24,000 bases of DNA from Anaerolineae bacterium (lineage in GTDB: Bacteria; Chloroflexota; Anaerolineae; Anaerolineales; Villigracilaceae): positions 1-24,000 of the forward strand of contig DNDO01000049.1 in assembly GCA_003484265.1 (NCBI GenBank). The letters run 5' to 3'. The notes beneath the pieces were generated by a model. It worked only from the letters and a program-made list of their open reading frames with translations. It did not search any database and had not been told where the DNA came from. Shown in pieces: positions 1 through 15,092 of this stretch (its first letter is position 1; each line of letters starts with the position of its first letter). A program made the translations under genes and the position numbers.

Positions 1-373
1 GTACAATTCTCTTGTTCGGCTTGAACTCTGTTGGAGGAGGAGATAACCTGCGAGACAAAAACCACCACCATAATCCTGCAAGGACTGTTTCCACTACGAA
101 GAAAGTATATTCTTCAATGGGAACATATCCGAGAACAATTCCTGTCACCAGGTCGGGGTTGTAAGACCAGACGCCTGTCGCAACGAGATAATTGTCCCAC
201 GGAGTGGTGTATGCGACCGCAAGAAAAACATGGATGCCGATGGCGATCCATACCGCACGTCCATTGCGAAAACCTTGAATCTGTTTACGATTCCTGTTAT
301 CCCTTAGCGTGAGGGCAAGGAAAATTAGAATGGGGAAGAATAAAAAACGAAGTAAAAATCCGAAATAGGTCAT
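1..373 (-). CDS. Lycopene cyclase domain protein (CrtYc/CrtYd-type), N-terminal part only; gene continues past the left window edge
   Basis: Not in the ORF track because no stop lies in the window. Manual translation from ATG (complement of 371-373) gives MTYFGFLLRFLFFPILIFLALTL...AVAYTTPWDNYLVATGVWSYNPDLVTGIVLGYVPIEEYTFFVVETVLAGLWWWF. It is hydrophobic, and the TPWDNYLV...G.W.Y and PIEEY.FF motifs are typical of the small membrane lycopene cyclase domain family. It lies downstream of and co-directional with crtI and the P450. Confidence 0.72.
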   Translation of the reverse strand, partial: MTYFGFLLRFLFFPILIFLALTLRDNRNRKQIQGFRNGRAVWIAIGIHVFLAVAYTTPWDNYLVATGVWSYNPDLVTGIVLGYVPIEEYTFFVVETVLAGLWWWFLSRRLSPPPTEFKPNKRIV

Positions 374-445
374 TATGTTCCTCTGCCATCGCGAGGCGGT
401 GATCATCCGCCCGAAGCCATGGCCGTCAGCGAGTTATAGATTGCT

Positions 446-1714
446 TTATCCCAATCGGTGCTCACAATCACGGCTTGTTACTTTCATCATCACCCCAGGG
501 CGCGGTTCCAGCGTTGCACCCATGTGGGGATGGATCTTGTGATCGGCAAATTCAAATTTATATGTGCGAAGCAATTGTGCCAGCACAACTCGTGCCTCTG
601 CCTGACCGAACGCCGCACCGATGCACGTCCGTGGGCCGCCGCCGAAAGGCACATATGCGAATGGCGGTGTCTTTTGCCCGCGGGCAAAACGTTCGGGGCA
701 AAAGTTTTCAGCGTTCTCCCAGATTTCAGGGTCCCGGTGAGTGAGGTAGATGGAATAGAACATACGCTCATCTGTGGGGACTTTCCCTTCATTGAATTCC
801 ATCTCCTCAGCCACGCTCCGATTGCCGATGTGAATGGGCGGATACAAGCGGAGACTCTCCTTGATAACCTGGTCGAGCAATGGCGACTTTTCCATCGAAT
901 CCACTTCTTCGATTACGCGTTTATGAACATCTGGGTGCTGTCCAAGCAATACAAAAACCCATGCCAGAAGGGCAGTGGATGTGTCATGACCCGCAATGAG
1001 CATCGTTAACATCTGGTCGCGGATGATATCGTCTGTAAGATCGGCGTCAATGAGGTGTTGTAGCAAGTCTTGATTCTTGTCTGCCTTCTGCCTTCTGCGA
1101 TCTGCAATAATTCCATACAAATATTTATCCAATACGTTCAACGGTTTACGAAATCCAAACCGCGGCATTTTTCTCCACAAGATCCACATCCCCGGCGAGA
1201 TGTATTTGATGGCTTTGAGTATGGGCGTCCAGACAAGAGGAATGTCATCCCAAACATCTTTGCTGAATAAAGTGTCCATGATGATGAGCAGAGCGATCTT
1301 GCGCGACTCGACGAGCATATCTACAACATCACCGTCCTGCCATTTGGAGGTCACTCTCTCCGTGTGGGAGATGAATTTCGATGTGAACCCAGATAATTGA
1401 GAAGGGTGAAGCGGCGGCTCCATCAGTTTACGATAGAGGTCGTGTTCGTCGCCGTCCACGATTAATACACCTTGACGCAATAGATCAGTCACAGGGTCGG
1501 TGTTGCGCCACAGAACCTTATCGCGTTCAGTGACCAACACTTTGCGATTCGCTTCAGGACCAAAGACCACATACGGGCGAAATCCAGGCAGTGGAATTTG
1601 AAAGAAGCGGCCGATGTGTGATGCCATCACTTTCAACGGACCCAGCGGCGAGCCTTCCTTGATGAGCGCTCGCAGTGCCGCACGCCCTAAATCTGGGGAA
1701 ATACTTTTTGCCAT
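446..1714 (-). CDS. Cytochrome P450 monooxygenase (possibly carotenoid/retinoid modifying; substrate not determinable)
   Basis: 422 aa. Heme-thiolate signature FGGGPRTCIGAAFG, I-helix AGHDTS, and ExxR in KESLRLYPP. The start is only 3 nt after the photolyase stop. Confidence 0.9.
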   Translation of the reverse strand: MAKSISPDLGRAALRALIKEGSPLGPLKVMASHIGRFFQIPLPGFRPYVVFGPEANRKVLVTERDKVLWRNTDPVTDLLRQGVLIVDGDEHDLYRKLMEPPLHPSQLSGFTSKFISHTERVTSKWQDGDVVDMLVESRKIALLIIMDTLFSKDVWDDIPLVWTPILKAIKYISPGMWILWRKMPRFGFRKPLNVLDKYLYGIIADRRRQKADKNQDLLQHLIDADLTDDIIRDQMLTMLIAGHDTSTALLAWVFVLLGQHPDVHKRVIEEVDSMEKSPLLDQVIKESLRLYPPIHIGNRSVAEEMEFNEGKVPTDERMFYSIYLTHRDPEIWENAENFCPERFARGQKTPPFAYVPFGGGPRTCIGAAFGQAEARVVLAQLLRTYKFEFADHKIHPHMGATLEPRPGVMMKVTSRDCEHRLG

Positions 1715-1717
1715 TAA

Positions 1718-3067
1718 CTATTCTTTGACACTTTCTTTTGAAAATTTATACGCTTGCAATGTTCTTTCTTTATCACGCTCGATGATCGGCTTTTCAGGGT
1801 AACCTTTTGCTTTGATTCCTTTTTCCCACGGCGCGTGAATGACCTTTGCATCCACATCGCGCAGTTCGGGAATCCAATTGCGGATGTAATCCCCGTTCGG
1901 GTCGAACTTTTTACTTTGCAGGGTTGGGTTGAAAATTCTAAAATAGGGCGCGGCATCGGTGCCTGTGCCAGCCGTCCATTGCCAGCCGCCATTATTTGCG
2001 GCGATGTCGCCATCGAGCAGGTTTTCCAGGAACCATGCCTCGCCCCAACGCCAGTCGATCAGCAGGTCTTTGACCAAATAAGACGCAACAATCATGCGCG
2101 CACGGTTGTGCATCCAGCCGGAACCTTTAAGTTGACGCATTCCTGCGTCGACAATCGGCACGCCGGTCCTGCCATCTTTCCATGCCTGGAATTCAGTCCG
2201 GTCATTACGCCAGGCGATATTTGCCAGCGATGATTTGAATGAAGTCTTTGCAATGTGCGGGAAGTGATACAGGATCTGGATATAGAACTCGCGCCAGATC
2301 AATTCATTCAACCAGACTTCAGCCCCCGCCCCCTTTTTTTGACTGATAGCCTGCCGCGCTTCACTGACAGCCTGTCTCAGCCCGAGCATTCCAAACCGCA
2401 GATACGGTGAAAGTGAGGATGTGCCATCCAGATCCATGCGGTTGCGGTCTTCGCCATAGGCATGAATTTTTCTGAATAGGAATTCTTCCAGCCGAACGAG
2501 CGCTTCCTTTTCACCCGCAGGAAAAAGGGGGTCCGCTTGGAATGGCGGCAGATGCCCGGACGTGAGCTTAAACGGTGTATTGATTTTTTCAGGTGCAGGG
2601 TAAAGTTCCAACTTTGATGGAAGTTTTGTCTTCCATATTTTTGAGTATGGTGTGTACACGGTATATGGTTTCCCATCCGCTTTGAGAACTTTATTTGGGT
2701 GGTGTACGGTTTGCCCGCTGACGAGGCTCAGGGGGAGATGATTTTTGATTTCCAGGTCCCGTTTACGGGCGTAAGGGGTGAAATCTTCCTCGGCAAATAT
2801 CTGTTTGGCATTAGTCTCTTGTATTAATTGACGTAATACATTTAGCGGTTTTCCCGTACGAATTACGAGATATGATTGATGTTTACGTAAATTTTTGTCA
2901 AGCGCGTCTAAACCTGCGTAAAGAAAGTCCTTCCGACGCGGAGACTGGGAGGAAAAGGCTGGATCGAGGATAAAGACGGGCAGGACGGATCCAACTTTGA
3001 GCGCGGAATGAAGCGCAGCGTTATCTGTCAGCCGCAAGTCACGTCGGATCCACCAGATCGCAGTCAT
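1718..3067 (-). CDS. phrB: Deoxyribodipyrimidine (CPD) photolyase / cryptochrome-photolyase family
   Basis: 449 aa. N-terminal WWIRRDLRLTDNAAL. C-terminal FAD-binding block DGDIAANNGGWQWTAGTGTDAAPYFRIFNPTLQSKKFDP. Its ATG overlaps the stop of the upstream small membrane gene (ATGA, 3064-3067). Confidence 0.93.
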   Translation of the reverse strand: MTAIWWIRRDLRLTDNAALHSALKVGSVLPVFILDPAFSSQSPRRKDFLYAGLDALDKNLRKHQSYLVIRTGKPLNVLRQLIQETNAKQIFAEEDFTPYARKRDLEIKNHLPLSLVSGQTVHHPNKVLKADGKPYTVYTPYSKIWKTKLPSKLELYPAPEKINTPFKLTSGHLPPFQADPLFPAGEKEALVRLEEFLFRKIHAYGEDRNRMDLDGTSSLSPYLRFGMLGLRQAVSEARQAISQKKGAGAEVWLNELIWREFYIQILYHFPHIAKTSFKSSLANIAWRNDRTEFQAWKDGRTGVPIVDAGMRQLKGSGWMHNRARMIVASYLVKDLLIDWRWGEAWFLENLLDGDIAANNGGWQWTAGTGTDAAPYFRIFNPTLQSKKFDPNGDYIRNWIPELRDVDAKVIHAPWEKGIKAKGYPEKPIIERDKERTLQAYKFSKESVKE

Positions 3068-3411
3068 GCCGGTATCACCAGAATGATACCGAACACTACC
3101 TCCACAATGAGGCTAATGATGTTCGACGAGACCGCCGATTTATCTACCACCATGGAAACCCCGCGCACCAGGGCGATGGCGAGATAGGTGATGCCAAGCA
3201 TCAGATACGCAGCAGGTGCATCGAGCGCCAACGGGACTGCTCCCAAAGCGATGAACACGCCTCCGAGAATTGAACGGATTTCTGTGATACCGCGTCCGCC
3301 AACGGGTTGCAGACCGGTAAAGGCTGTGATGGCTGTCGGCTTGATCAGAGAATACAAGCCCGTGAGTATGGTTGCAATGGCAGCGATTATGTGCATAATT
3401 TGAATGATCAT
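3064..3411 (-). CDS. Small integral membrane protein (DUF4345-like, about 4 TM)
   Basis: 115 aa and almost entirely hydrophobic helices. AGGAAAA SD upstream of the ATG. Translationally coupled to the photolyase. The family assignment is from memory of the pattern only. Confidence 0.6.
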   Translation of the reverse strand: MIIQIMHIIAAIATILTGLYSLIKPTAITAFTGLQPVGGRGITEIRSILGGVFIALGAVPLALDAPAAYLMLGITYLAIALVRGVSMVVDKSAVSSNIISLIVEVVFGIILVIPA

Positions 3412-3444
3412 AGGTTTTCCTAATTCTGAGTTCCTTATTGAATA

Positions 3445-4311
3445 TCAGAGTCGCGGGATTAATACAGGCGTTCTCTTTTTATATAACTCATAGTTTTCCT
3501 GTCCGCCCCATTTATTGTCTGCTTTTTTCTCAAGCTGAGGAACCCCACTAACGCGGGTAAGAAGCAATGCGACGAAGACAGGGGAAATCAGGGCAATCCA
3601 TTGCCAACCCTGCAGAACAGGCAGGGCGATTATTGACACGCCGACCCAGAGGACGATCTCACCAAAATAATTGGGATGGCGGGATCGCGACCATAATCCT
3701 GTTTGAATGAACCTGCCTTTATTGGCTGGATTTGCGTTAAATTTACTTTTCTGAGAGTCGGCAATAACCTCGAACGTAAAACCGATAGCCCAAACCAGAA
3801 AACCAACGACGGCAAACAGGTCTAATTCTTTTCTGGCGGTCGTTGTGATGGCAACCAGCGCCGCCGCCATTGTGAACGTTACCCACAAGCCCTGGATGGT
3901 CCATACATTTAGGAAGCGGATAAATGATGGTTTGAGTTCATCGAATCGATCATCCTTGCCCGCTTTTTTTATCCTGCCAAACAGGAATGTTCCGAGTCGG
4001 ATTGCCCAGATAATGACAAGACCTGATAAAAGGATTGATCTGGGGTCTACACCTGTGCTGAAAAAGAGGGCGAGAATGATTCCAGAAATATAAGTGATGC
4101 TTCCCGTCAGGTCAAAAAATTTTTCGGTTTGCCGCAAATATGCGGGGATAAATGCCAGCCACTGGATCATAAATACCATCCCAACCAACAAGGCGAATAA
4201 TGGAATGCCAGCTATAGAAGTTCCATTCTGGCTGCCTGCCCAGGCGACCAAAGCGCCGATCAATATCAAGATGGGAAATGTAAGTAGTGCATTACGATCT
4301 GATTTCTTCAT
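3445..4311 (-). CDS. DUF1295 / steroid-5-alpha-reductase-like polytopic membrane protein
   Basis: The track ORF extends to 4569, but that N-terminus overlaps the upstream gene. Start re-set to MKKSDRNALL (ATG = complement of 4309-4311), preceded by an AGGAA SD. 288 aa, multi-TM, with the C-terminal signature WSRSRHPNYFGEIVLWVG typical of DUF1295/ICMT-like reductase-methyltransferase folds. Confidence 0.8.
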   Translation of the reverse strand: MKKSDRNALLTFPILILIGALVAWAGSQNGTSIAGIPLFALLVGMVFMIQWLAFIPAYLRQTEKFFDLTGSITYISGIILALFFSTGVDPRSILLSGLVIIWAIRLGTFLFGRIKKAGKDDRFDELKPSFIRFLNVWTIQGLWVTFTMAAALVAITTTARKELDLFAVVGFLVWAIGFTFEVIADSQKSKFNANPANKGRFIQTGLWSRSRHPNYFGEIVLWVGVSIIALPVLQGWQWIALISPVFVALLLTRVSGVPQLEKKADNKWGGQENYELYKKRTPVLIPRL

Positions 4312-4334
4312 GGGAAATTTCCTTTTGAAGCGGG

Positions 4335-5009
4335 TTAAAACCCGCGTCTTTGACCCTGCCATGGGGCGGGGGAATCGTTTTTGAACTCTTCCACGCTGGG
4401 ACCACTCAGAGTGACAAGCCGCCAGGCCCCATAGATGTAACTGACGATGAGCAGGACGATGGTCGCAGGCCAGCCTGTCAATGCGTTGACCATCGCCAAC
4501 TGGCTTGTGTCCTGCCCTTGAAAGAGCGTCACCTGCCACCACAAACGAAGTGTGAAAAAGACAGTCCATACCAGAGTGACTTCAGTATAAGCAGGACGTA
4601 CCTGGGCATGCCAATACCATTCCAGGGGCCAACGGCGGGCGAAGTAGCTTGTCCATGCCACCATGGGTTTGCGGATAAGCAGGCTGACCAGTGCAAGCGC
4701 GATCGTGATTCCTCCGTTGACAATGCCCGGGAGAAAGTAGCCTTCAGAACGTCCGAGCAGAAGCGCGAGTGCAAATGCCAGCGCGACACTTCCCATGCCT
4801 GCAAGGGCATACATTAGAGATTGTTTGCGGCGCAAGCGCATGATGGCTATCACGATTGCTGTACCGAGCGCTCCGTACATTGCGGCTTGGAAACCAACTA
4901 GTCCATTTAATAACAAAAATAAAACCGGCGGCAGGATGGTATCCAGTACGCCAACTCCATTGGTGACGGAGCGGAGTTCCTCCATCAGTTCGCGTGTTTT
5001 GTCACGCAT
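4335..5009 (-). CDS. Polytopic membrane protein (DUF3159-like)
   Basis: 224 aa. The pattern LDTILPPVLFLLLN ... MRLRRKQS ... YFLPGIVNGG ... IRKPMVAW resembles DUF3159 as I recall it. The start overlaps the stop of the upstream gene by 8 nt. Confidence 0.62.
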   Translation of the reverse strand: MRDKTRELMEELRSVTNGVGVLDTILPPVLFLLLNGLVGFQAAMYGALGTAIVIAIMRLRRKQSLMYALAGMGSVALAFALALLLGRSEGYFLPGIVNGGITIALALVSLLIRKPMVAWTSYFARRWPLEWYWHAQVRPAYTEVTLVWTVFFTLRLWWQVTLFQGQDTSQLAMVNALTGWPATIVLLIVSYIYGAWRLVTLSGPSVEEFKNDSPAPWQGQRRGF

Positions 5010-5328
5010 GCTTTCCCAGCCAGAATTTGCGCCAGTCGTTTTCGCTGTTTTGGAGGGTAATGAAAGCGTAGAGACTGCCCGCGAGGAATCCGAGGATCAT
5101 CACGGCAGCTGTCCATACGATCGCCACAGGCAGGGATTTCTCGCGGAAGATGATCCATCCTGAGAAAAGCACGAAGCCCGTGTATAAGTCTACGAGTGAG
5201 ACGATGCCCCAGGGCATGGATGCCAACTGTTTTCCTTCGGCGAAAAAGTCACCCACGATGAAGCCATAAATCAGGGCGGCAGCCATTGCAAGCACACCCA
5301 GAGCGGATACGATTTTTGCATTGCGCAT
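5002..5328 (-). CDS. Small membrane protein (DUF1475-like, about 3-4 TM)
   Basis: Start re-set to MRNAKIVSALGVL (ATG = complement of 5326-5328), giving 108 aa. The motif MPWGIVSLVDLYTGFVLFSGWIIFRE is recalled as DUF1475-like. It begins 31 nt downstream of the heliorhodopsin stop. Confidence 0.58.
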   Translation of the reverse strand: MRNAKIVSALGVLAMAAALIYGFIVGDFFAEGKQLASMPWGIVSLVDLYTGFVLFSGWIIFREKSLPVAIVWTAAVMILGFLAGSLYAFITLQNSENDWRKFWLGKHA

Positions 5329-5359
5329 ATTGTTTTTCACTTTGTACGTCAGATTCTTC

Positions 5360-6139
5360 CTATACCGGTGCCAGCGTGCCAGCAAAGATCATCCAGGCTA
5401 ATACTGTTTTTGCAACCAAACTGAGAATTACGAAAGCCCGTTCTCCATATAAGTAGTTTTTCCATGGTCCGACCTTTTTATATTGCAGGTACATGTTGAC
5501 TGCGAAAGTATTGAAGAACACGAACAGGGTTGGGATGATGGCGTACACAAAGGCAGGCGGCTTGGCTTCCCCGCCGGATGCAATGGAGCCAAAGAAGTAG
5601 ATGAATATCACCAGCCAGGGGATAATTCCAGCGATCGAGCCGAAAGTGAATGGCGACCAATCCGGTTTTGCTCTCCCTTGATTAAGGCTCTCCATCAATA
5701 AGCCGAACAGGTTCATCATGGCATTCAATCCAAACATAAGGATGATGGCGCCCAAATCCCAGACGCCCGCCAGCATGCCTATTAGTACAATCATAAGAGA
5801 TGAACTAAGGGCATATTCGTAAAAACGAATGGGATTTTTTCCCTGCTGTAGGTTTTCCACATAGCTTGTGTAACCGATGGTGGAAAGATAGAAGTGGGCG
5901 ATAGCGGAAAGCAGCAGGAAGATGGCAACCGATGGACCGAGAGGCAGTTCGTAGAACAGGTCAGCCACTGGGGAAAGTGAGAAGGTGGATGTATTGAAAC
6001 TAAGGAAGTTCGTAAATACAGGGTAGGTAGTATCGTTGCTGACGACCCACATAAATACTCCCTGAATCAAATGTAAGAATCCCATGATCAGGTTGAATCG
6101 TCGAAGTTTTGAGAAAGTTTGATCGGTTTGGACAGGCAT
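5360..6139 (-). CDS. Heliorhodopsin (7-TM retinal protein, inverted-topology rhodopsin family)
   Basis: 259 aa and colinear with heliorhodopsin 48C12 as recalled. RFYEYALSSSLMIVLI matches RWVEYSLSSSVMIVLI. YGERAFVILSLVAKTVLAWMIFAGTLAPV matches RGERAYIVLSLVAKSALAWQIFSGTLIPA. FGLNAMMNLFG, GSIAGIIPW and FVFFNTFAVNMYLQYKK also match. Putative Schiff-base Lys K244 (codon 5408-5410), counterion Glu E108 (5816-5818), and conserved His23 and His82. AAGGAG SD 8 nt upstream of the ATG. Confidence 0.9.
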   Translation of the reverse strand: MPVQTDQTFSKLRRFNLIMGFLHLIQGVFMWVVSNDTTYPVFTNFLSFNTSTFSLSPVADLFYELPLGPSVAIFLLLSAIAHFYLSTIGYTSYVENLQQGKNPIRFYEYALSSSLMIVLIGMLAGVWDLGAIILMFGLNAMMNLFGLLMESLNQGRAKPDWSPFTFGSIAGIIPWLVIFIYFFGSIASGGEAKPPAFVYAIIPTLFVFFNTFAVNMYLQYKKVGPWKNYLYGERAFVILSLVAKTVLAWMIFAGTLAPV

Positions 6140-6191
6140 TAATATAGCTCCTTTTGCTTATTGGTTTATGTAAATAGAAAGTGTTTTTCGA

Positions 6192-7490
6192 TTAGGCGAA
6201 TTTTTGGGACTCGAGAGTCAACCAGTCGCTTATTTCATTTCCATCTTCATTCATCACTCCTTTAACAGAGACGGCGTACATTTCCAGGTAGATCGGTAAT
6301 ATGGCGGTGGATACGTTTTGGGTGATGAGTAAGTTGCTCAACCACTGCATGTCTGTGGAGAGAAAATTGATATCGCCGAGTTTGAGGGTTGCGATCAGGC
6401 TGTCGCCGAGGAATTGGTTGGCAGTGTCGAGAAAGTCGATGGATTGACCCTGCGATGCAATAATGTGGGATAAGGTGGTTTCGATCTGAGTTCTGTGTTG
6501 ATGAAATTCATCTGCGAGGAGAAGGGTACCGTTTTTGGCGGTTTCCTCTTTTACCATAGGGACAGAGTTTACGATCAGGTTTTCGATGGCGGGGACAGCA
6601 CTTCCGATGCTGTTGCCGAGAAAATGGGCAGGGATCCGTTTTTCAAGTCCGTTGATGTCATTGAAAACCCTGCCTCCAAATGCTGATTGAATCCCTTTTT
6701 TATTTAGTGTTCGCGCCATCTCGCGCAAGTGGACGGCGTTCACCAGGGTCTGCGCGGAGAGCACAACCAGTTTGGGCTTGGTGGTTTTGACCGTTTCATC
6801 GATGCGGGCTGTCGGTACGTTTGCGCCAAGATAGACCACATTCCAGCCGCGTCTTCGTAATAAGAGATTGGTCAGTAACAATGGGAAGGCGTGCCATTCA
6901 TTAGGCGGGCAGGCAAGCACGATGGTCTCGTTGCGGGTTGGAGAAGGGGTTGCGCTTATGAGTGCTTCGAGCCTGCGTGTGGCGAGGCCCGATGCGAAGT
7001 GTTCCTGTTGGACGGACGCCGAGCCTTTGTGCCAGTATTCACCGACTTCGTATAATCCGCGCATGATGATCTCTGTGCAGGCTATCTCAATGGAATGAGC
7101 GGCAAATGCCTGATTCAATATTTGTTCCGCGGCGACCGTATTATAGTTGAAGCAAGCAGTCAGCCACTCTCTGCGCAAGGCTTCGATGTTCAAGTTGTCA
7201 ACAGGGATATTGTTTTTTGGTTGCGAATCAGCCAGAGGGTCTGTACCCGAAGCGATGGTTTCGTTCCACAAGTCTACTGCGCGGGAGATCGAAAGTCCTT
7301 CCTCCTGTTTTGCGAGCAGCCATTTGATCGTCGCGATATCGCGATCGGAATACAGGCGATGCCCGCCTGATGTGCGCTGTGGAACGGGGAGACCGTAGCG
7401 GCGTTCCCATGCACGTAGTGTGTCGGCGGCAATGCCCGTTTGGTTGAGCACGACTTTGATATTGTAGGTGGGTGTCTGGCTGATTATCAT
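6192..7490 (-). CDS. litR: MerR-family, B12-binding light-responsive transcription regulator (LitR/CarH type) with an extra C-terminal domain
   Basis: 432 aa. N-terminal MerR HTH (YNIKVVLNQTGIAADTLRAWERRYGLP...GGHRLYSDRDI). W153-x9-E163-H164 (EYWHKGSASVQQEHF) is the CarH-type AdoB12 cap motif. Rossmann B12-binding domain with E198-W-H200-A-F-P203 in place of ExHxxG. About 125 residues follow the B12 domain, which canonical ~300-aa CarH lacks. Confidence 0.87.
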   Translation of the reverse strand: MIISQTPTYNIKVVLNQTGIAADTLRAWERRYGLPVPQRTSGGHRLYSDRDIATIKWLLAKQEEGLSISRAVDLWNETIASGTDPLADSQPKNNIPVDNLNIEALRREWLTACFNYNTVAAEQILNQAFAAHSIEIACTEIIMRGLYEVGEYWHKGSASVQQEHFASGLATRRLEALISATPSPTRNETIVLACPPNEWHAFPLLLTNLLLRRRGWNVVYLGANVPTARIDETVKTTKPKLVVLSAQTLVNAVHLREMARTLNKKGIQSAFGGRVFNDINGLEKRIPAHFLGNSIGSAVPAIENLIVNSVPMVKEETAKNGTLLLADEFHQHRTQIETTLSHIIASQGQSIDFLDTANQFLGDSLIATLKLGDINFLSTDMQWLSNLLITQNVSTAILPIYLEMYAVSVKGVMNEDGNEISDWLTLESQKFA

Positions 7491-7512
7491 TTATCTTTCC
7501 AATTATTTGAGT

Positions 7513-9045
7513 TTAGACGCGTGCGGCAGCAACCGCATTTGCCATATTTTGAACCGATATTGTATCTTTTTCTTTGAGGATTCTCTCGGTCGTCAGGCGG
7601 GCAGATAACAGCACGATGGGAAGCCCCGTGCCTGGATGGGTGGACGCACCAGCGAAGTAGAGATTTTTATATTTCTTATGACGGTTCTGCGGACGCAAAT
7701 AGCCAACCTGCAAGAAGTTGTGACTGAGACCAAACGCAGAGCCCTTCTCAAGGTTAAAACGTTCTTTCCAAACTTTGGGTTGATACACGATCTCGAACTT
7801 GATATGTTCTCTGAGATCATCCACGCCTAATTCCGTAGCGAGGCGTTTGAACACGATTTCGCGAGCACGTTTTACCAGCGCATCCCAGTCCTGTTCACTG
7901 CGTGCATCAAGGTGACCGACAGGCATCAACACGTAGAGAGTATCCTGACCTTTTGGAGCGGCGGCTTTATCAGTGCGTGTTGGCGCATGGACATAGAAAG
8001 ACGGCACATCAGGTAATGTGTGATCCTCGAATATTCGGTCAAACGAAGCCTTGTAATCGCCGCCGAGGAATACGTTGTGATGCGCGATCTGTTCATACTC
8101 CTTGTCCACGCCCCAGTAGAACATTATCGTGGAGCAGGTGTAGAGTTTGTTTTCGAGTTTTTTTGATTCATTTACATCGGGCAATAATTCTTTATAAATA
8201 TAGGGCAGGTCTGCATTGCCGATGAAGATGTCGGCTGTTAATTCTCGTCCATCATTTAACTGAACACCTTCAACTCTTGAACCTGCAACTTTCATACGTT
8301 TTACAGGTGAGTTGTAGATGAACTTGACACCCAGTTTTTCAGCAACCTTGACCAACGCCTGAATGCCCGCGTACATCCCGCCCATGGGGTACCAAACACC
8401 TTCGGCTAATTCCGTGTATTGCAAAAGGGAGTATGTGGCAGGCGCATCGTAAGGGCTGAGACCAAGATACATATTCTGGAAAGTGAATGCTGCTTTGAGC
8501 CTTTCATCTTTGAAGTATTTACCGACATTGGCAAAATGTTTCTGTAATGCTTTGAGGTTGAATATGAGGGGCAGATTACGCAGTGATAGGTACTCGAAGA
8601 TGTTGTAAAAATTGCGCCCCACAAACTTCTCAACGGATACCTTGTAATGTTTGCCGCCTTCCGCGATGTAATTCAGGAAGCCCGTGAAGGCGGTCTTCTC
8701 AACCTTCTCCAGTTGTTCCTGCATTTTTCCGATGTCCGACGTCAACTCCAATTTCAAGCCGTCGATAAAATGGACTTTATATGTGGGGTCGATGCGGCGC
8801 AGGTCGAGGTGGTCATTCATTTTCTCGCCGAGGGAGGCAAAGGTTTCCTCCCAAATTTCGGGCATCAAGAACAGGGTTGGACCAATATCGAAGCGGTGAC
8901 CGTCGCGTACGATCTGGTTGGCGCGCCCGCCAGGGGTCGCCTCCTTTTCGAGCACTGTCACGTCATATCCGTTTTTGGCGAGGCGGGCGGCAGTGGCAAT
9001 CCCGCCAATGCCTGCCCCGATCACGATTGCAGTTCGTTTTTTCAT
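7513..9045 (-). CDS. crtI: Phytoene desaturase
   Basis: 510 aa. N-terminal FAD fold IVIGAGIGGIATAARLAKNGYDVTVLEKEATPGGRA. C-terminal NLYFAGASTHPGTGLPIVLLSA, typical of CrtI. AAGGAAG SD. First gene after the divergent promoter. Confidence 0.92.
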   Translation of the reverse strand: MKKRTAIVIGAGIGGIATAARLAKNGYDVTVLEKEATPGGRANQIVRDGHRFDIGPTLFLMPEIWEETFASLGEKMNDHLDLRRIDPTYKVHFIDGLKLELTSDIGKMQEQLEKVEKTAFTGFLNYIAEGGKHYKVSVEKFVGRNFYNIFEYLSLRNLPLIFNLKALQKHFANVGKYFKDERLKAAFTFQNMYLGLSPYDAPATYSLLQYTELAEGVWYPMGGMYAGIQALVKVAEKLGVKFIYNSPVKRMKVAGSRVEGVQLNDGRELTADIFIGNADLPYIYKELLPDVNESKKLENKLYTCSTIMFYWGVDKEYEQIAHHNVFLGGDYKASFDRIFEDHTLPDVPSFYVHAPTRTDKAAAPKGQDTLYVLMPVGHLDARSEQDWDALVKRAREIVFKRLATELGVDDLREHIKFEIVYQPKVWKERFNLEKGSAFGLSHNFLQVGYLRPQNRHKKYKNLYFAGASTHPGTGLPIVLLSARLTTERILKEKDTISVQNMANAVAAARV

Positions 9046-9103
9046 GTTTCTTCCTTAGCTCCCCTCTCTCGTTTTAGGAAAGGGGTTGGGTGTCATTTCA
9101 AGC

Positions 9104-9131
9104 ATTATACACAATGCACAGAATTTGTCAA
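9104..9131 (-). promoter_or_regulatory. Sigma-70-type promoter reading toward crtI: -35 TTGACA (complement of 9126-9131), 16-bp spacer, -10 TATAAT (complement of 9104-9109)
   Basis: Read directly from the reverse complement. Both hexamers match the consensus exactly. The implied leader to the crtI ATG (9045) is about 50 nt. Confidence 0.7.
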
Positions 9132-9145
9132 GATTATCTTGACAA
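9125..9145. promoter_or_regulatory. Perfect inverted repeat TTGTCAAGA-TTA-TCTTGACAA; candidate operator covering both divergent -35 boxes
   Basis: 9-bp arms with a 3-bp spacer and no mismatches. Each arm contains a TTGACA, one per strand. Confidence 0.75.
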
Positions 9146-9167
9146 AAGAACACAAAACATGTACAAT
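9139..9167 (+). promoter_or_regulatory. Sigma-70-type promoter reading toward crtB: -35 TTGACA (9139-9144), 17-bp spacer, -10 TACAAT (9162-9167)
   Basis: Read directly from the sequence. GGAGG SD at 9185-9189 and crtB ATG at 9194. Confidence 0.7.
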
Positions 9168-9193: not shown

Positions 9194-10138
9194 ATGCAGG
9201 TACAAGCGAAATGGGAAAACCAACTACTCGATTTGGCGGGGAAAATCCCGCACTCATCAACCCGCCCCTTCTTTTCATATTGGGCTGGCGATGCCGCACT
9301 TCGCAAAGCCTACAATCTCGCCGAAAAGATCACGGCGAGACAGAGCAAATCCTTCCATTTTGCATCCTCGCTCCTCCCAGAAGAGAAACGTTTAGCCGTT
9401 CGCGCCTTGTATGCCTTTTGCCGCACAGTGGATGACATTGTGGATACGTCCACGGACGATACGCGAGAGTCCCAACTCGATTACTGGCGTGGGATGGTGG
9501 AGCACGCCTCTTTTCTCGACGGGGATCTGGTTGCCGCTGCATGGGCTGATACCTTATCCCGTTACCAAATTCCCCGGCACTATGCCCTTCAATTGATAGA
9601 CGGCGTCAACCGCGACTTGACCCAGTCCCGGTATCAAACCTTCGAAGAGCTTGCCACATATTGCTACGGTGTGGCATCTACGGTTGGATTGATGAGCATG
9701 TACATAATTGGTTTCAACAGCAATAAAGCAGTTCCGTACGCGATCAAACTCGGTGTCGCCCTCCAAATGACCAACATCCTGCGCGATGTGGGGGAGGACT
9801 TCCAAAATGGACGGCTCTATTTGCCGCGTGAAGAACTCGCCTACTACGGTATTCGTGAACAGGATATCGTTGAGGGGCATGTCACCGACAACTGGCGACA
9901 GTTCATGAAGTTCCAGATCGAACGTACACGTCAGCTTTATGAAGATTCATGGGAAGGCGTAAAGATGCTTGAACGCGAAGGACAATTTGCCATCGGCGCC
10001 GCATCCGTTTTTTATCAGGGTATCTTGGATGAGATCGAAAAGAACGACTATGATGTATTTACGCAAAGAGCGAATTTATCCGCATTGAGCAAACTAAGAA
10101 AAGTTCCAGCCTTATGGTTGAAGATCAAAGCTTTGTAA
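9194..10138 (+). CDS. crtB: Phytoene synthase
   Basis: 314 aa. SKSFHFASSLLP, the Asp-rich motif YAFCRTVDDIVD, and the second motif LQMTNILRDVGEDFQNGRLYLPREEL. Confidence 0.93.
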   Translation: MQVQAKWENQLLDLAGKIPHSSTRPFFSYWAGDAALRKAYNLAEKITARQSKSFHFASSLLPEEKRLAVRALYAFCRTVDDIVDTSTDDTRESQLDYWRGMVEHASFLDGDLVAAAWADTLSRYQIPRHYALQLIDGVNRDLTQSRYQTFEELATYCYGVASTVGLMSMYIIGFNSNKAVPYAIKLGVALQMTNILRDVGEDFQNGRLYLPREELAYYGIREQDIVEGHVTDNWRQFMKFQIERTRQLYEDSWEGVKMLEREGQFAIGAASVFYQGILDEIEKNDYDVFTQRANLSALSKLRKVPALWLKIKAL

Positions 10139-10163: not shown

Positions 10164-10913
10164 TTGAAAGACACGTTACGACAAATCACCAATCTTGTTA
10201 CCGTCATCATTGCGCTGACGATTAACATCCTGGCCTCTGCTTTGCCCCTCAACGGACAGAACACAGGCGAAATTTCAGACCGCTTCGAAGTGTTTTTCGT
10301 CCCCGCTGGTTATGTATTTTTAATCTGGTTCTTCATCTTCGCCGGCTGGATCGCATTTTCCATTTTCCAGTCTCTGCCGGCACAAAAGGAAAAGCCCCGT
10401 CTACGCAGACTTGGTTATTTATTTGCCCTGAGCAATATTGCCAACGCAGGCTGGTTATTCATGTGGCACTACAATTATTTTGGATTGAGCGTGATCTTCA
10501 TGCTGTCCTTGCTGGGACTGCTCATCGCCTGCTACCTGCGTCTCGATGTGAACCGCTCTGGCGCCAAAGGTGCCGAATGGTGGTCGGTTGATTTGCCCTT
10601 CAGCGTCTATCTCGGCTGGATTACCGTAGCTACTGTCGCAAACATCACAGCCTGGTTGTCCTTTGTCAACTGGAACGGCCTGGGTATCTCAGAGCCGATC
10701 TGGGCGGTTATCATGCTTGCGGTCGCGTCCATCCTCGGTTTTGGCATGGCATTTACGAGGCGGGACGCAGGCTATCTGCTCGTCCTTGTCTGGGCATTTA
10801 TCGGCATCGCAGTTAAGCAGACACCTGCTCTAGTAGTCACCGGTGCATGGATCGCGGCAGGTGCCATGCTCGTGCTTGCCTTGTACAACTTGATCCGCCG
10901 CCAATCCGCATAG
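10164..10913 (+). CDS. Trp-rich polytopic membrane protein, TspO/MBR-related (long form)
   Basis: 249 aa with a TTG start and an AGGAG SD at 10152-10156. Motifs PAGYVFLIWFFIFAGW, NAGWLFMWHYNYF and VYLGWITVATVANITAWL resemble the tryptophan-rich sensory protein family. It begins 25 nt after crtB. Confidence 0.5.
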   Translation: MKDTLRQITNLVTVIIALTINILASALPLNGQNTGEISDRFEVFFVPAGYVFLIWFFIFAGWIAFSIFQSLPAQKEKPRLRRLGYLFALSNIANAGWLFMWHYNYFGLSVIFMLSLLGLLIACYLRLDVNRSGAKGAEWWSVDLPFSVYLGWITVATVANITAWLSFVNWNGLGISEPIWAVIMLAVASILGFGMAFTRRDAGYLLVLVWAFIGIAVKQTPALVVTGAWIAAGAMLVLALYNLIRRQSA

Positions 10914-11184: not shown

Positions 11185-12477
11185 ATGACAATGAAAAAGC
11201 CAACTAGTTTGGTAATCGTCGGGTCGGGTCCCGTTGGAATGGTTGCCGCGTTGATGTTTAAGCAACATTTCAAGAAAGTCATCCTGCTTGAACGTCAATC
11301 AAAGGAGAGTTTCCTTCGAACCCATGGCTTTACATTTCCGATCGTGTTTTCCCCCGCTTCGATAAAAATTCTAAAAGAGATCGGTGTCTGGGAAGGGATC
11401 AGTTCACAGCGGTCTGAATTCTTCGGTGTGGTCATACATAAACGAATTTTTGGCAGGGAATTCAGGTTTACATCTTCGAGAGAGGGGGTGTATTCCCACT
11501 GGAGAAATCATGCCATCACAAAGCTTTATGAGCGGATGGTTGAATTAGGAATCCCGATTCATTTCAATGCCCGTGTTGAAAGTATAGACTTCCAGGGTAA
11601 TGTTTGCAGGGAATCAAATTTGGGGGAGATCCCATTCGATCTCCTGTTGGGTGCAGATGGCATCAACAGTCAAACTCGCGGACTTATGGCAAAGGCACAT
11701 CCAGAATTTGAAGAAAACCAGTTCAGTTTGACATTTTTAGACAACTGGTATGCCTATCGTCTCCCATCAGAGGGTGTCATGCGTGAAAAATTTTCTGGGG
11801 GGAATCGCTTCCTGGCATCAAATGTCTTTGTCGACAATCTGGCCGATCACCCCTCTGAAAAATTCCGCATAGTGACTACAGGGATGCGGCAACCAGAGGA
11901 AGAGATCAGCATCCTAATCAAATATGGCGCAGACGTGAGTTTTCCCCGCCTCAAGTATTTGAACGAGAGTTATTTTGGTCGATTTGTGGAATCAAAACAG
12001 GAATTGGATGCAGCCTGGGAAGCCGGATATGCCGGTAAGTTTGAGCAAGCTTATGCGCCAACTTTCCACTTAAACAACGTGCTGCTTATAGGTGATGCAG
12101 CTCATGGATTTGAGAGTACTGGAGATCTAATCAATCTCGGTATCGCCTCCATTGGATCGTTTTATGAAATCTTCACCCGTCAATCGGATTTGGCTGGCGC
12201 TTTGAAAGAGTATGACAACACTGTTGGCGAAGACTTACGTTTCTATGCAGGATTTTCCTATCGCAGAAGCAAAGAAAAGGTTGCATTTGAAATAGGATCG
12301 ATTGAATTTGCTGGATGGTTGGGGATTACAAAGCGCCACCCTACTTTATTTGGTATCTATGAAGATGATTTTGAGATTTCCAGTTATATGAAAGCTTATA
12401 AGAAGGACATTCTAAAGAGTAGGTTGGTAGTATTTGGTTTTATACTCGCCATCATCCTACTGATCTTAGTATGCTAA
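11185..12477 (+). CDS. FAD-dependent aromatic-ring monooxygenase (UbiH/KMO-like) with a C-terminal TM anchor
   Basis: 430 aa. GxGxxG in LVIVGSGPVGMVAA, the GADG motif LLLGADGINS, and GDAAH in LLIGDAAHGF. Hydrophobic C-terminal tail VVFGFILAIILLILV. Confidence 0.8.
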   Translation: MTMKKPTSLVIVGSGPVGMVAALMFKQHFKKVILLERQSKESFLRTHGFTFPIVFSPASIKILKEIGVWEGISSQRSEFFGVVIHKRIFGREFRFTSSREGVYSHWRNHAITKLYERMVELGIPIHFNARVESIDFQGNVCRESNLGEIPFDLLLGADGINSQTRGLMAKAHPEFEENQFSLTFLDNWYAYRLPSEGVMREKFSGGNRFLASNVFVDNLADHPSEKFRIVTTGMRQPEEEISILIKYGADVSFPRLKYLNESYFGRFVESKQELDAAWEAGYAGKFEQAYAPTFHLNNVLLIGDAAHGFESTGDLINLGIASIGSFYEIFTRQSDLAGALKEYDNTVGEDLRFYAGFSYRRSKEKVAFEIGSIEFAGWLGITKRHPTLFGIYEDDFEISSYMKAYKKDILKSRLVVFGFILAIILLILVC

Positions 12478-12516
12478 TTGACATCCGTCTTGTACTCGAT
12501 TAAGGAATATAATCTC

Positions 12517-13230
12517 ATGGATTTAAGCCTTTATTTACTCATCGCTCTATTGTTGACTTCCTGCACAACCGCCTCTTCGTTGCCAACCGAAACATCGGTT
12601 CCCATGCTCAATCAGGAGACTACTTCCATGCCGAAGATTCGATATCTTGCACTGGGTGATTCGTATACCATAGGTGAAAAAGTCCCTGAACGGGACCGTT
12701 GGTCCAACCAACTCGAGAAATTACTTGAAGGGAATGGTATTTACTCGGATGTAACCATCATCGCCCGTACAGGCTGGACGGTCAACGAACTTTGGGAAGG
12801 AATCCAAGCCACTCCTCCGGAGGGATCGTATGACATGGTCACGTTATTAATAGGTGTCAATGACCAGTACCGCGGCTATCCCGTGGACGGTTATCGCGAA
12901 GATTTCCGTTTTATACTCGGGAAAGCCATCGAATATGCGGGTGGTGACCCGGAACGAGTGGTAGTGTTGTCCATTCCTGATTGGGGATTTACTCCTTTTG
13001 CAGGAAGTCAGGACACCGAACCCATCAGCAAAAAAATCGACGAGTTCAATGCCGTCAACCTTGAAGAATCTGAATCGGCGGGAGTATATTATGTGAATGT
13101 AACCCTCATCTCCCGCATGGCAATGGACGATTTTGATTTGCTTGCTTCGGATCGATTGCATCCATCAGGTAAAATGTATGCCATGTGGGCGGAGAAGACT
13201 TTGCCGATCGCTTTGGAAATATTGAAATAA
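12517..13230 (+). CDS. SGNH/GDSL-family hydrolase, probable lipoprotein
   Basis: Start re-set to MDLSLYLLIALLLTSC (lipobox-like LTSC), with an AAGGA SD at 12502-12506. Block I is LALGDSYTIGE, block III is LLIGVNDQ, and block V is DRLHPS. Confidence 0.8.
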   Translation: MDLSLYLLIALLLTSCTTASSLPTETSVPMLNQETTSMPKIRYLALGDSYTIGEKVPERDRWSNQLEKLLEGNGIYSDVTIIARTGWTVNELWEGIQATPPEGSYDMVTLLIGVNDQYRGYPVDGYREDFRFILGKAIEYAGGDPERVVVLSIPDWGFTPFAGSQDTEPISKKIDEFNAVNLEESESAGVYYVNVTLISRMAMDDFDLLASDRLHPSGKMYAMWAEKTLPIALEILK

Positions 13231-13284
13231 TGATAGTAGGGCTTGGTCACCCCGCCCGTAGTACAAAAATATGAGGAGAATGAC

Positions 13285-13923
13285 ATGTCTAAAATAGATT
13301 ACGACAAAACGCAGGAATATTTAGAAACTCTCATTCCCCCGCGCGAAGAAGAGATTCAAAGGATGGAGGAGTATGCAAAAGAAAAAGGTTTCCCGATCAT
13401 CGGTCCTGCATGCGGATATTATTGTTACCAACTCGCGAGAATGATCGGGGCGAAATCCATCTTTGAACTGGGATCAGGATATGGCTATTCAACGGCATGG
13501 TTTGCAAAGGCAGTGAAAGAAAATGGGGGAGGGGTAGTGCACCACACCGTCTGGGACGATGATCTGTCGAAGCGTGCGAAAGGACATTTGTCCGCGTTGG
13601 GGAGCGACGATGTCGTCAAGTTCCATATAGCGGAGGCGGTTGAGACTCTTCGCAAGACGAGCGGTCCGTTTGACATCATCTTCAACGATATTGATAAGGA
13701 TGCATATCCAACTTCCTTGCCTCATATCAAAGAGAAATTACGCTCAGGCGGATTGCTCATCATTGACAACATGATATGGCATGGACAGATCCTCGACCCG
13801 AACGACCGCGAAAAGACCACGGAAGCTATCCGCGAATTCACGAAGATGATAACGACCGATCCTGATTGGATCGTTTCACTAACCCCCATGCGAGACGGGA
13901 TGATCGTTGCATTTAAAAAATAA
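13285..13923 (+). CDS. Class I SAM-dependent O-methyltransferase (family 3, caffeoyl-CoA OMT-like)
   Basis: Start re-set to MSKIDYDK after a GAGGAG SD (13273-13278). SAM motif IFELGSGYGYST and the metal/acidic motif IIFNDIDKDAYP. Confidence 0.85.
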   Translation: MSKIDYDKTQEYLETLIPPREEEIQRMEEYAKEKGFPIIGPACGYYCYQLARMIGAKSIFELGSGYGYSTAWFAKAVKENGGGVVHHTVWDDDLSKRAKGHLSALGSDDVVKFHIAEAVETLRKTSGPFDIIFNDIDKDAYPTSLPHIKEKLRSGGLLIIDNMIWHGQILDPNDREKTTEAIREFTKMITTDPDWIVSLTPMRDGMIVAFKK

Positions 13924-13931
13924 CAGAGACT

Positions 13932-15092
13932 ATGAAATACAGTTTTTATGCCACCCCAAACCGCCGCAACCTGAATATTCTGAACAAATGGACTTACTAT
14001 CCAAAAGATGTGCTTCCCATGTGGGTGGCAGATATGGATTTTCCAGCTCCAATACCTATTCTAAATGAACTTCATCGGGTGGTGGATCAAGGCGTACTTG
14101 GTTATGAGATCCCGTCAAAATCCTTGAGCGAGACGGTCGCCGCCCGCATGGACCATCTATACCAATGGAAAGTGAGACCTGAGTCTGTGGTCACTGTGAC
14201 GGGCATCGTAAGCGGGTTCAACGTGGCGGCGCGAGTGTTCTGTTCACTGAAGAAGGGGGTGCTCATTCAGACGCCGGTGTTTAACGAGTTCCATGAGGTT
14301 AAAAACAATATCGGTATTCCGCAAATCGATGTTCCACTCGTTAAAAGCGTGGACGGGAACATTTTGCACTACGAGATCGATTGGGATGTTTTTAGAAAAC
14401 AGGTGAAGAAGGCGGGCATGTTCCTATTATGCAATCCGCATAACCCGCTCGGTATCATCTTTTCTCATAAAGACCTGTTGCGTATGGCTGAATTTTGTAT
14501 TGAGAACGGCGTCGTGATCGTTTCCGATGAGATTCATTCAGAACTGTTGCTTGGCGGCAATCAATTCACCCCAATGGCGAAACTCTCGCCAGAGATCGCA
14601 AAACATACAATTACACTCGTATCGCCTTCGAAGACGTTTAATGTACCTGGTTTGTTCTGTGGCTTTGCAATCATCCAAAATAAGGAGTTGCGTGAGCGGT
14701 ATAAAAAAGAAGTGGAACATTTGCGTCTGCATGTGAACAGCATGGGATTGCATGCTGCTCAGGTTGCGTTCTCCGGTCAATGTGACGGCTGGTTGAGAGA
14801 ATTACGCCGCTACCTGACCGCGAACCGGGATTTCCTCGTGAAATACATTACAGAGAATATGCCCAATGTGAGAACAACCATCTCAGAAGCCACTTATTTG
14901 GGCTGGCTCGATTTTACGCGAACAGGAATTAAAGGCTCCCCCTACAAATATCTCATAAAAAATGCCAAGGTGGCATTAAGCGAGGGGAAAATATTTGGCA
15001 GTGATGGGAAAGGTCATACCCGCATCAACTTCGGCACGTCGCGCAAAATTCTCAAACAGGGATTGGACCGCATTCGCAGAGCGCTGCCATAA
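13932..15092 (+). CDS. PLP-dependent C-S lyase / aminotransferase class I-II (PatB/MalY type)
   Basis: 386 aa. N-terminal LPMWVADMDFPAP and the PLP-lysine motif SPSKTFNVPGL. Confidence 0.85.
   Translation: MKYSFYATPNRRNLNILNKWTYYPKDVLPMWVADMDFPAPIPILNELHRVVDQGVLGYEIPSKSLSETVAARMDHLYQWKVRPESVVTVTGIVSGFNVAARVFCSLKKGVLIQTPVFNEFHEVKNNIGIPQIDVPLVKSVDGNILHYEIDWDVFRKQVKKAGMFLLCNPHNPLGIIFSHKDLLRMAEFCIENGVVIVSDEIHSELLLGGNQFTPMAKLSPEIAKHTITLVSPSKTFNVPGLFCGFAIIQNKELRERYKKEVEHLRLHVNSMGLHAAQVAFSGQCDGWLRELRRYLTANRDFLVKYITENMPNVRTTISEATYLGWLDFTRTGIKGSPYKYLIKNAKVALSEGKIFGSDGKGHTRINFGTSRKILKQGLDRIRRALP

Follow-up and report, generated by a model that had tools for sequence, protein, structure and literature searches.

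The stretch of DNA analysed here (the window) is 24,000 nt long, corresponds to positions 1 to 24,000 of contig DNDO01000049.1 from an Anaerolineae bacterium, and begins with an array of ten genes on the minus strand, the third of which encodes a heliorhodopsin (HeR). The array is probably a photoprotection operon of the CarH/LitR type that is de-repressed by light in this beach-sand bacterium of the order Anaerolineales. This reading is supported by a conserved CarH-type operator in the promoter of the array, by the B12 photoreceptor motifs of a regulator encoded within it, and by the recurrence of the same operon in relatives with and without HeR.

The first gene of the array is crtI (7513–9045), encoding a protein of the phytoene desaturase family (TIGR02734, 500 bits against a cutoff of 238; Pfam Amino_oxidase). 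It is followed by the gene for a 432-aa CarH/LitR-like regulator with the domains MerR, B12-binding_2 and B12-binding (6192–7490) and by the gene for a 259-aa HeR (5360–6139; PF18761, E 1e-98). The next four genes encode membrane proteins: a small DUF1475-like protein of 108 aa with a weak match (5002–5328; 25.5 bits against a cutoff of 22.3), a DUF3159 protein (4335–5009; PF11361, E 9e-32) whose gene overlaps the DUF1475-like gene by 8 nt, a DUF1295 protein of the steroid-reductase/isoprenylcysteine carboxyl methyltransferase (ICMT)-like superfamily (3445–4311; PF06966, E 2e-63) and a small DUF4345 protein (3064–3411; PF14248, 28.8 bits against a cutoff of 26.5). The DUF4345 gene shares a 4-nt overlap (ATGA) with phr, which encodes a class-I-type cyclobutane pyrimidine dimer (CPD) photolyase (1718–3067; PF00875, PF03441). 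The array ends with a cytochrome P450 gene (446–1714; PF00067) and the 5' part of a lycopene cyclase gene (1–373), which is cut by the window end. The exact sequence of the regulator was used to find the source contig of the window, which is 59,384 bp long and comes from a beach-sand metagenome (L083 in our numbering of loci). The cyclase gene is complete on this contig (L083:17118–17939): its product, a fused protein of 273 aa, contains two TIGR03462 domains (E 2e-34), and the 3' end of the gene is overlapped by a convergent MatE gene, so the array consists of exactly ten genes over approximately 9.5 kb. The places and identities that an earlier note on this DNA had assigned to the ten head-to-tail genes are borne out by Pfam and NCBIfam, and the junctions that it listed (22, 52, 31, -8, 23, 33, -4, 3 and 72 nt) were reproduced exactly. 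These figures assume that the DUF1475-like gene starts at 5328 and the DUF1295 gene at 4311, both of which differ from the longest open reading frame (ORF); the first start is backed by an alignment of 14 homologues and the second by independent gene calls.

The strong promoter proposed for the array lies upstream of crtI (9104–9131, minus strand; TTGACAaattcTGTGCAttgtgTATAAT). It agrees with the sigma-70 consensus at 12 of 12 positions, is the sole 12/12 site, and has a candidate CarH operator embedded in it. Mapped CarH operators are composed of tandem 11-bp repeats of the form nnnnTnnACAn, relaxed to TnnRCR, and an arrangement of one perfect repeat with two pseudo-repeats also occurs (PMC9304148). 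The window operator likewise places tandem 11-bp repeats over its target promoter, with three TnnACA-like units in 11-bp phase: a perfect TTGACA, TGTGCA (TnnGCA) and TATAAT, the last of which is the -10 box. In most relatives the -10 box is accompanied by two perfect repeats. A comparison of 16 orthologous promoters, located before crtI-carH or before carH alone and including six from an independent metagenome search, gave the pattern TTGACA-AAT-nn-T(G/A)(G/A)AC(A/G)-n5-TA(T/C)AAT with a fixed 16-nt spacer. Within this spacer T12, C16 and a purine at both 15 and 17 occur in 16/16 promoters and the remaining positions are variable, which places a TnnRCR at spacer positions 12–17 in 11-bp phase with TTGACA and TATAAT. 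The same promoter is found in 8/8 independent metagenome crtB/crtI intergenic regions. A motif-only scan over 1.22 Mb of loci, using two perfect tandem repeats and a partial third, identified 40 partly overlapping sites; 13 loci had sites at most 200 nt upstream of carH or crtI-carH, and these include a distant group with CarH only 39–43% identical to that of the window. The suggestion that this promoter is photoregulated is therefore backed by a CarH-type operator conserved in the 16 orthologous promoters, and control of the array by the co-encoded B12 photoreceptor-repressor appears well founded. From the same pattern we infer repression in the dark and de-repression in the light.

Back to back with the array promoter is a divergent promoter for crtB and the genes following it (9139–9167, plus strand; TTGACA-N17-TACAAT, 11/12). 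The promoter pair is kept in relatives, where it drives either crtB or a homologue of unk10164, the gene that follows crtB in the window. The pair is unusually compressed here, as the two -35 boxes abut versus a distance of approximately 22 nt in relatives. Direct reading of the region also identified a perfect inverted repeat of 11+1+11 (9124–9146, strandless; TTTGTCAAGAT-T-ATCTTGACAAA) that is made up of the two extended -35 boxes. This 23-bp palindrome was considered as the operator of a dimeric MerR protein and rejected: relatives have some 22 nt between its arms, and what they conserve is the extended -35 boxes and the 11-bp-phased direct repeats of each promoter, not the palindrome itself.

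In one lineage the HeR gene may have a CarH-controlled promoter of its own. The gap between carH and the HeR gene is approximately 150 nt in L002 (2212–2369), L003 (8048–8197) and L008 (5846–5993) versus 52–66 nt elsewhere, and CarH of this lineage is the closest to that of the window (61–63% identity). A second tandem TnnACA site is present in this gap just upstream of the HeR gene in L002 and L008, which suggests a separate promoter there. Locus L017 contains a similar operator-promoter directly upstream of its HeR gene. By our own reading the corresponding gap of the window contains one isolated TnnACA only, and a position weight matrix scan of the array found no operator-promoter above threshold besides the crtI promoter.

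The regulator retains the RxWERRY, Wx9EH and ExH motifs of CarH and matches TtCarH in a search of the PDB (E 3e-27). Its N-terminal region contains a MerR helix-turn-helix (HTH; PF13411 and PF00376) with an RxWERRY recognition-helix motif (R26-A-W28-E29-R30-R31-Y32), as expected of the DNA-binding domain of CarH. This is followed by the Wx9EH motif of the CarH four-helix bundle (W153-HKGSASVQQ-E163-H164), which contacts the 5'-deoxyadenosyl group (PMC9304148), and by the B12 motif, which we read as E198-W-H200-A-F-P203, 41 residues, S245-A-Q247, 24 residues and G272-G273. The RxWERRY and Wx9EH motifs, the ExHxxP motif (E198-x-H200) and G272-G273 do not vary among 31 homologues of 49–83% identity. 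The earlier note had called this protein a litR/carH-like B12 regulator, and this holds for these invariant motifs; the protein is not a plain CarH, as it carries an extra domain. With 432 aa it is approximately 130–150 residues longer than CarH, whose two-module architecture comprises about 280–300 aa. The additional C-terminal domain (residues ~300–432; 6192–6590, minus strand) is a four-helix domain, and a sequence search with residues ~271–432 against Pfam, NCBIfam and the PDB (phmmer) returned no match, so the domain was identified by fold comparison alone. An AlphaFold2 model of the regulator (pLDDT 88) was compared by Foldseek, which placed residues ~100–432 on nearly the full length of the photocobilins 8J2Y and 8J2W (target-normalised TM-score 0.82–0.84, root-mean-square deviation 3.3–3.4 Å, 330–342 columns). 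In the model, a four-helix bundle, a Rossmann B12 domain and a C-terminal globin-like domain packed against it superimpose on these structures of B12 photoreceptors whose globin-like domain binds biliverdin (PMC10979010). The C-terminal domain is thus predicted to be photoglobin-like, and the regulator could be a dual-chromophore transcription factor that uses B12 and a bilin. The domain is shared by a large Chloroflexota family of homologues of 425–450 aa. The photocobilins that have been characterised either stand alone or form a fusion with a diguanylate cyclase, and do not bind DNA, in contrast to the MerR HTH of the regulator here (PMC10979010, PMC8717448). The architecture of MerR HTH, B12 domain and photoglobin has been catalogued (PMC8717448), and no characterisation of a MerR-B12-photoglobin protein was found in the literature searched.

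The conservation of the array was examined in 80 loci (L001–L080) from a HeR-seeded search of GTDB genomes, which are mostly metagenome-assembled genomes (MAGs) of Anaerolineales, include Ca. Villigracilis and contain a best HeR match of 91% identity. Synteny of the ten genes is kept in the closest relatives: the full order, with crtB divergent from crtI-carH-HeR and phr-P450-cyclase at the far end, is found only in L001 and L012 and partly in L005 and L068, and in L069 most of the genes are present but rearranged. Elsewhere phr, the P450 gene and the cyclase gene are detached or on the opposite strand. The core of HeR with the DUF1475-like, DUF4345, DUF3159 and DUF1295 genes persists in shuffled orders down to approximately 63% HeR identity, and all four DUF genes share the HeR strand in every locus where they are present (26/26 loci for the DUF1475-like gene). 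The DUF1475-like protein is itself well conserved, with a mean column identity of 75% and the invariant motif PWGIVSLVDLYxGFxLFSxW. The DUF1475-like and DUF4345 proteins were also considered as forms of DUF2177, a published HeR neighbour, and this was rejected since neither gave any DUF2177 match in Pfam at E values up to 10. The carH and phr genes often lie near HeR, at times divergently. Other recurrent neighbours at the HeR loci are genes for an alpha/beta hydrolase, a short-chain dehydrogenase/reductase (SDR), an AhpC/TSA peroxiredoxin fragment, a pyrimidine-dimer DNA glycosylase and a Rieske oxygenase, and these fit a theme of light or oxidative damage.

A second search, of metagenomes and seeded with the DUF1475-like protein, showed that the backbone of the operon is common without any HeR. 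This backbone consists of crtB divergent from crtI-carH, an optional DegV gene, the DUF1475-like, DUF3159, DUF1295 and DUF4345 genes and, further on, phr (HeR-less loci L086, L087, L094, L098, L104, L106, L108, L114, L116, L118, L123, L130 and L136), and wherever a locus includes the crtB/crtI intergenic region, its promoter-operator is the same. HeR lies between carH and the DUF module in 3/17 carH-linked loci and anywhere at all in 5/27 loci of at least 6 kb; whenever its place is between carH and the module, it comes immediately after carH. Operons with and without HeR are interleaved by sequence similarity. In a Chloroflexota MAG from Lac Pavin (L068:10346–10572) the HeR gene is split by an insert of approximately 230 nt with terminal inverted repeats (TACAAGTTAAGG...CCTTAACTTGTGA) and a target duplication (GCCCTCAGTTCATC), which looks like a miniature inverted-repeat transposable element (MITE). 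As the backbone is mostly found without HeR and the gene is split in L068, the locus comparison indicates that HeR is an optional cassette of a pre-existing CarH-type light-stress operon and not its organising element. The earlier idea of a self-contained unit for light-damage sensing and protection holds for its cargo of carotenoid genes, photolyase and membrane proteins, and needs correction on the place of HeR.

These loci also bear on whether HeR is the primary light sensor and signals to the MerR regulator or to a nearby two-component system. HeRs are often termed sensory, MerR regulators are a recognised class of HeR neighbours, and the window encodes a PAS-GAF hybrid histidine kinase (20232–22775). 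However, the regulator carries B12 photoreceptor motifs of its own, operon and operator alike are kept in loci that lack HeR, and the kinase gene is 11 kb away and belongs to a set that is not syntenic with the HeR cluster in relatives. A sensor role of this kind for HeR is hardly credible.

The HeR of the window is clearly a member of its family, with 329.6 bits to PF18761 (cutoff 26.7) and 353.9 bits to the NF038020 equivalog model (cutoff 100). Alignment to TaHeR (6IS6, E 4e-72) places SLVAKT on the SLVAKS that contains the Schiff-base Lys and FYEY on the WFEY that contains the counterion Glu, and the predicted gene product is thus intact with both residues in place. The statement in the earlier note that HeRs have no generally accepted function is out of date. 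Published roles include a photolyase helper and the regulation of glutamine synthetase and of an ABC transporter (PMC9769723, PMC9529153, PMC11109279), in which HeRs act as binding regulators (PMC9769723, PMC11109279). The closest precedent is Trichococcus flocculiformis, in which a HeR and a CPD photolyase are encoded in one putative operon and TfHeR binds and enhances its photolyase (PMC9769723). The HeR and photolyase genes of the window are likewise in one co-directional array with no terminator between them, and would be expected to be co-transcribed. The photolyase here is best matched by PRK10674 (E 3e-118) and TIGR03556, models of the class I or 8-hydroxy-5-deazaflavin (8-HDF) type (E about 1e-117), and reaches only 79 bits against the cutoff of 550 for the class II model TIGR00591.

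A different set of partners is suggested by the neighbourhood. DegV, a fatty-acid-binding protein, is the commonest HeR neighbour (33/74 HeR-seeded loci), and most close relatives carry a DegV gene between HeR and the DUF1475-like gene, which are approximately 870 nt apart in L004, L005, L007, L009, L012 and L068. HeR could thus form a light-gated lipid or isoprenoid remodelling complex with the DUF1295 protein, the small DUF proteins and, in relatives, DegV, with the photolyase and carotenoid genes merely co-regulated. The constant strand of the four DUF genes agrees with this, the association of HeR with DegV, DUF2177 and DUF1295 and the idea of a lipid function have been published, and in Chlamydomonas singlet oxygen induces genes of both the DUF1295 and the DUF2177 family. 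On the other side, the module mostly occurs without HeR and hence works independently, and the DUFs have no known biochemical activity. No DegV gene was found in the 24-kb window by tblastn; the gap in question spans only 5329–5359, and L001 likewise lacks DegV between HeR and the DUF1475-like gene. Such a complex is conceivable but rather unlikely. As to the choice of partner for HeR, neighbourhood statistics favour the membrane/DegV module, and precedent favours the photolyase, but the precedent concerns a class II enzyme and the photolyase here is of the class I type.

The carotenoid genes offer a further link to HeR, since it had been proposed that the carotenoid pathway of the array feeds the HeR chromophore. 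Phytoene synthase, phytoene desaturase and lycopene cyclase are all present, as in retinal gene clusters, and CrtB, CrtI and the cyclase can be predicted to produce beta-carotene. The nearest solved chain to the P450 is 7WZL, an unnamed putative P450, followed by the CYP97 proteins LUT5 and LUT1 and by CYP120A1, with CYP175A1 further down; these relatives act on carotenoids or retinoids, and the enzyme is a candidate carotenoid hydroxylase. The carotenoid genes could accordingly be co-transcribed as a pigment supply for HeR, either of retinal from beta-carotene or of a P450-hydroxylated xanthophyll that serves as antenna in a lateral fenestration. The genes for CrtB, CrtI, the fused cyclase and a P450 nearest to CYP97, CYP120 and CYP175 stand under the same promoter pair. 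By our own mapping of the TaHeR alignment the fenestration residues are kept as well: the aromatic pair F164 and F209, G171, N210, and the small residues S168 and A213. A carotenoid-binding fenestration of this kind has been proposed in a 2025 preprint for 91% of HeRs (bioRxiv 10.1101/2025.11.27.691015), so its presence here does not discriminate, and carotenoid binding by bacterial HeRs is a proposal only. Neither a Blh/Brp (PF15461) nor a carotenoid cleavage dioxygenase (CCD; PF03055) was found among the scanned ORFs of the window and the called genes of L083, which together cover approximately 28 kb of the source contig; blh is rare in HeR genomes according to published neighbourhood surveys. 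The same carotenoid genes also head HeR-less operons (L086, L087, L104, L106, L108, L114 and L136) and hence are not there on account of HeR. Because of this, and because no cleavage enzyme was found, a self-contained retinal supply is not supported, and photoprotection would be the simpler reason for the carotenoid genes. Pigment supply as the reason for their co-transcription is quite unlikely. A combined version of these ideas can be formulated, in which enzymes for hydroxylated carotenoids, a B12- and possibly bilin-binding regulator, a retinal-binding HeR and a flavin photolyase are made from one transcript, and HeR uses the xanthophyll antenna of the operon, and perhaps its beta-carotene as retinal precursor by way of an unknown cleavage step, to gate the membrane/lipid module or the photolyase. 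We regard this as very unlikely. If true, it would describe a two-tier response to light damage, transcriptional and then post-translational, in a non-phototrophic member of the Chloroflexota; the proposed "exogenous antenna" would become endogenous and genetically linked, and HeR would gain a tractable set of partners.

Several observations weigh against the array being a single light-induced operon under an ordinary CarH. The window operator has only one perfect repeat, and the -35 and -10 boxes fit a TnnACA-like pattern trivially, so that the independent evidence consists of the middle repeat and its conservation. The B12 motif of the regulator contains SxQ where the consensus D/ExHx2G/P-x41-SxT/V-x22-27-GG expects SxT/V, and because of the extra photoglobin-like domain its photochemistry and oligomerisation may be unlike those of CarH. 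Transcripts of a bacterial HeR rise in the dark in an actinobacterium (PMC8591293), the sole data of this sort found. The T. flocculiformis precedent is imperfect, as TfPHR belongs to class II, four genes lie between HeR and phr in the window, and the link between the two is looser in relatives. With regard to the transcript itself, minus-strand promoter-like sites matching at 10/12 positions are present within the DUF1295 gene (4115–4087), phr (2901–2872) and the P450 gene (1050–1023). The gap between the P450 and cyclase genes (374–445, minus strand) contains a GC-rich imperfect hairpin without a U tract, and this gap, 72 nt in the window, extends to 166–223 nt in L001 and L069. The hairpin has an inner stem GGGCGG...CCGCCU and an outer stem CCAUG...CGAUGG, the surrounding 101 nt fold at -30 kcal/mol (z -1.7), and a role in processing or attenuation is possible.

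The transcript-related points would suit an array of abutting independent units, namely crtI-carH-HeR-DUFs and phr-P450-cyclase, the latter as one or two units, brought together by genome compaction without regulatory meaning. The position of phr in relatives, where it is separated from the DUF4345 gene by 3–4 kb with intervening genes or lies on the opposite strand beside carH, agrees with such a division. However, the DUF4345 gene and phr share 4 nt, only 3 nt separate phr from the P450 gene, and the last gap alone could hold a promoter. The absence of a hairpin followed by a U tract from the gaps, as read in the earlier note, also stands: a consensus scan found zero minus-strand terminator-like sites in any gap, and its two minus-strand terminator-like matches were both weak and both intragenic. 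Promoter-like matches numbered 14 against 11.4 ± 2.9 expected from shuffled sequence; this is chance level, so internal promoters are neither indicated nor excluded. An Rfam scan of the window found no riboswitch and no known RNA. Separate transcription units are unlikely on this evidence, and we infer a single long transcript from crtI to the cyclase gene.

As one operon under CarH-type control, the array would function as follows. In the dark, the 432-aa regulator loaded with adenosylcobalamin (AdoCbl) would occupy the three phased repeats from the -35 to the -10 box of the crtI promoter, and probably also the abutting crtB promoter, so that RNA polymerase is blocked. In the light, the Co-C bond would be photolysed, the repressor would be released, and one long transcript would be made that encodes CrtI, the lycopene cyclase, the carotenoid-type P450, the regulator, the four DUF membrane proteins and the photolyase, with crtB expressed divergently. 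Since the regulator gene lies within its own array, the circuit would be autoregulated. The HeR cassette directly follows the regulator gene, and its product would appear only once the cell is already lit. The products would guard against light damage, and families among the membrane proteins are tied to singlet-oxygen responses in other organisms, as with DUF1295 in Chlamydomonas. HeR would then most likely behave like the characterised HeRs, as a light-activated regulatory partner of proteins expressed with it, either the membrane/lipid module, the photolyase or both.

The regulatory logic of the array is that of classical CarH. The carB operon of Myxococcus xanthus, litR-crtB of Thermus thermophilus and LitR of Bacillus megaterium resemble it in having a MerR-B12 repressor encoded within or beside its carotenoid targets, and CarH/LitR carotenoid operons share the tandem 11-bp TnnACA repeats over the -35 and -10 boxes and the location of crtB and crtI at divergent promoters. 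The light-inducible megaplasmid cluster of T. thermophilus provides a parallel for the cargo too, with a photolyase and the carotenoid hydroxylase CYP175A1. The array differs from these operons in the photoglobin-like domain of its regulator, in the HeR and four DUF genes among its cargo and in its Chloroflexota host. Myxobacterial divergent promoter pairs with crtI-carH have been described (PMC9304148). The class II LitR proteins of Pseudomonas (PplR/PmlR) are also comparable, in that a LitR repressor governs a light-induced set comprising a photolyase, lipid-modifying enzymes (UfaM), an SDR, an FAD oxidoreductase and genes of unknown function (PMC9758184). These regulators differ in that they do not bind B12 and need a LOV partner, and neither carotenoid genes nor rhodopsins are on their light-induced list (PMC9758184).

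Much of the picture of the HeR neighbourhood has already been published. In three surveys, those of Chazan, Bulzu and Cho, genes for photolyase, cobalamin-binding proteins, MerR regulators, DegV, DUF1295, SDRs and alpha/beta hydrolases are recurrent near HeRs in Chloroflexi and other phyla, and carotenoid genes are described near zinc finger HeRs (Znf-HeRs) (bioRxiv 10.1101/2021.02.16.431466, PMC8612252, PMC11109279). The text read of these surveys gives neither a CarH operator nor a B12-dependent light induction of HeR, and does not report the DUF1475-like, DUF3159 and DUF4345 genes or the mostly HeR-less backbone. Cho et al. (PMC11109279) describe the operons of the MerR group as free of the other grouped genes, in contrast to the MerR regulator and photolyase that are found in one array here. 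No publication linking HeR with CarH or LitR was found in the literature searched. Four elements appear to be new: a CarH operator before HeR-containing operons, from which B12-dependent light induction is predicted; the status of HeR as a passenger that the conserved carH-DegV-DUF operon can do without; the membership of the DUF1475-like, DUF3159 and DUF4345 proteins in this operon; and a photocobilin-like regulator. The function of HeR is debated and the regulation of HeR genes is almost unknown. As the HeR gene stands behind a CarH-type operator, HeR in many Anaerolineales would be expected to be expressed only in UV-to-green light and with B12 available. The natural pairs of operons with and without HeR are otherwise alike and make a comparative or heterologous study possible. 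The regulator, as an uncharacterised DNA-binding relative of photocobilins, is of interest to B12 photobiology and optogenetics.

The divergent arm begins with crtB (9194–10138, plus strand; SQS_PSY, E 4e-78), which is followed by unk10164 (10164–10913, plus strand). The latter encodes a Trp-rich multi-pass membrane protein of 249 aa that belongs to no Pfam or NCBIfam family. Its homologues are present in L001, L008, L009, L013, L014, L024, L029, L139, L142 and L159, and in two of these loci, L008 and L009, carH and the homologue are transcribed divergently from each other, so unk10164 is probably part of the same light regulon. A TspO-like identity, guessed from the Trp-rich sequence, was considered for this protein and found to be unsupported. 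Four head-to-tail genes follow unk10164 on the plus strand (11185–15092) and encode a UbiH-like FAD monooxygenase, a GDSL hydrolase, an O-methyltransferase and an aminotransferase. Homologues of the GDSL hydrolase and O-methyltransferase genes accompany crtB in L001, L004, L068, L104 and L136, and the genes of this region may form a second arm of the regulon. The far end of the window (20232–23979, minus strand) encodes the hybrid histidine kinase mentioned above, which has 847 aa and a PAS-GAF-HisKA-HATPase-2xREC architecture; after it come the genes for a response regulator and another kinase.

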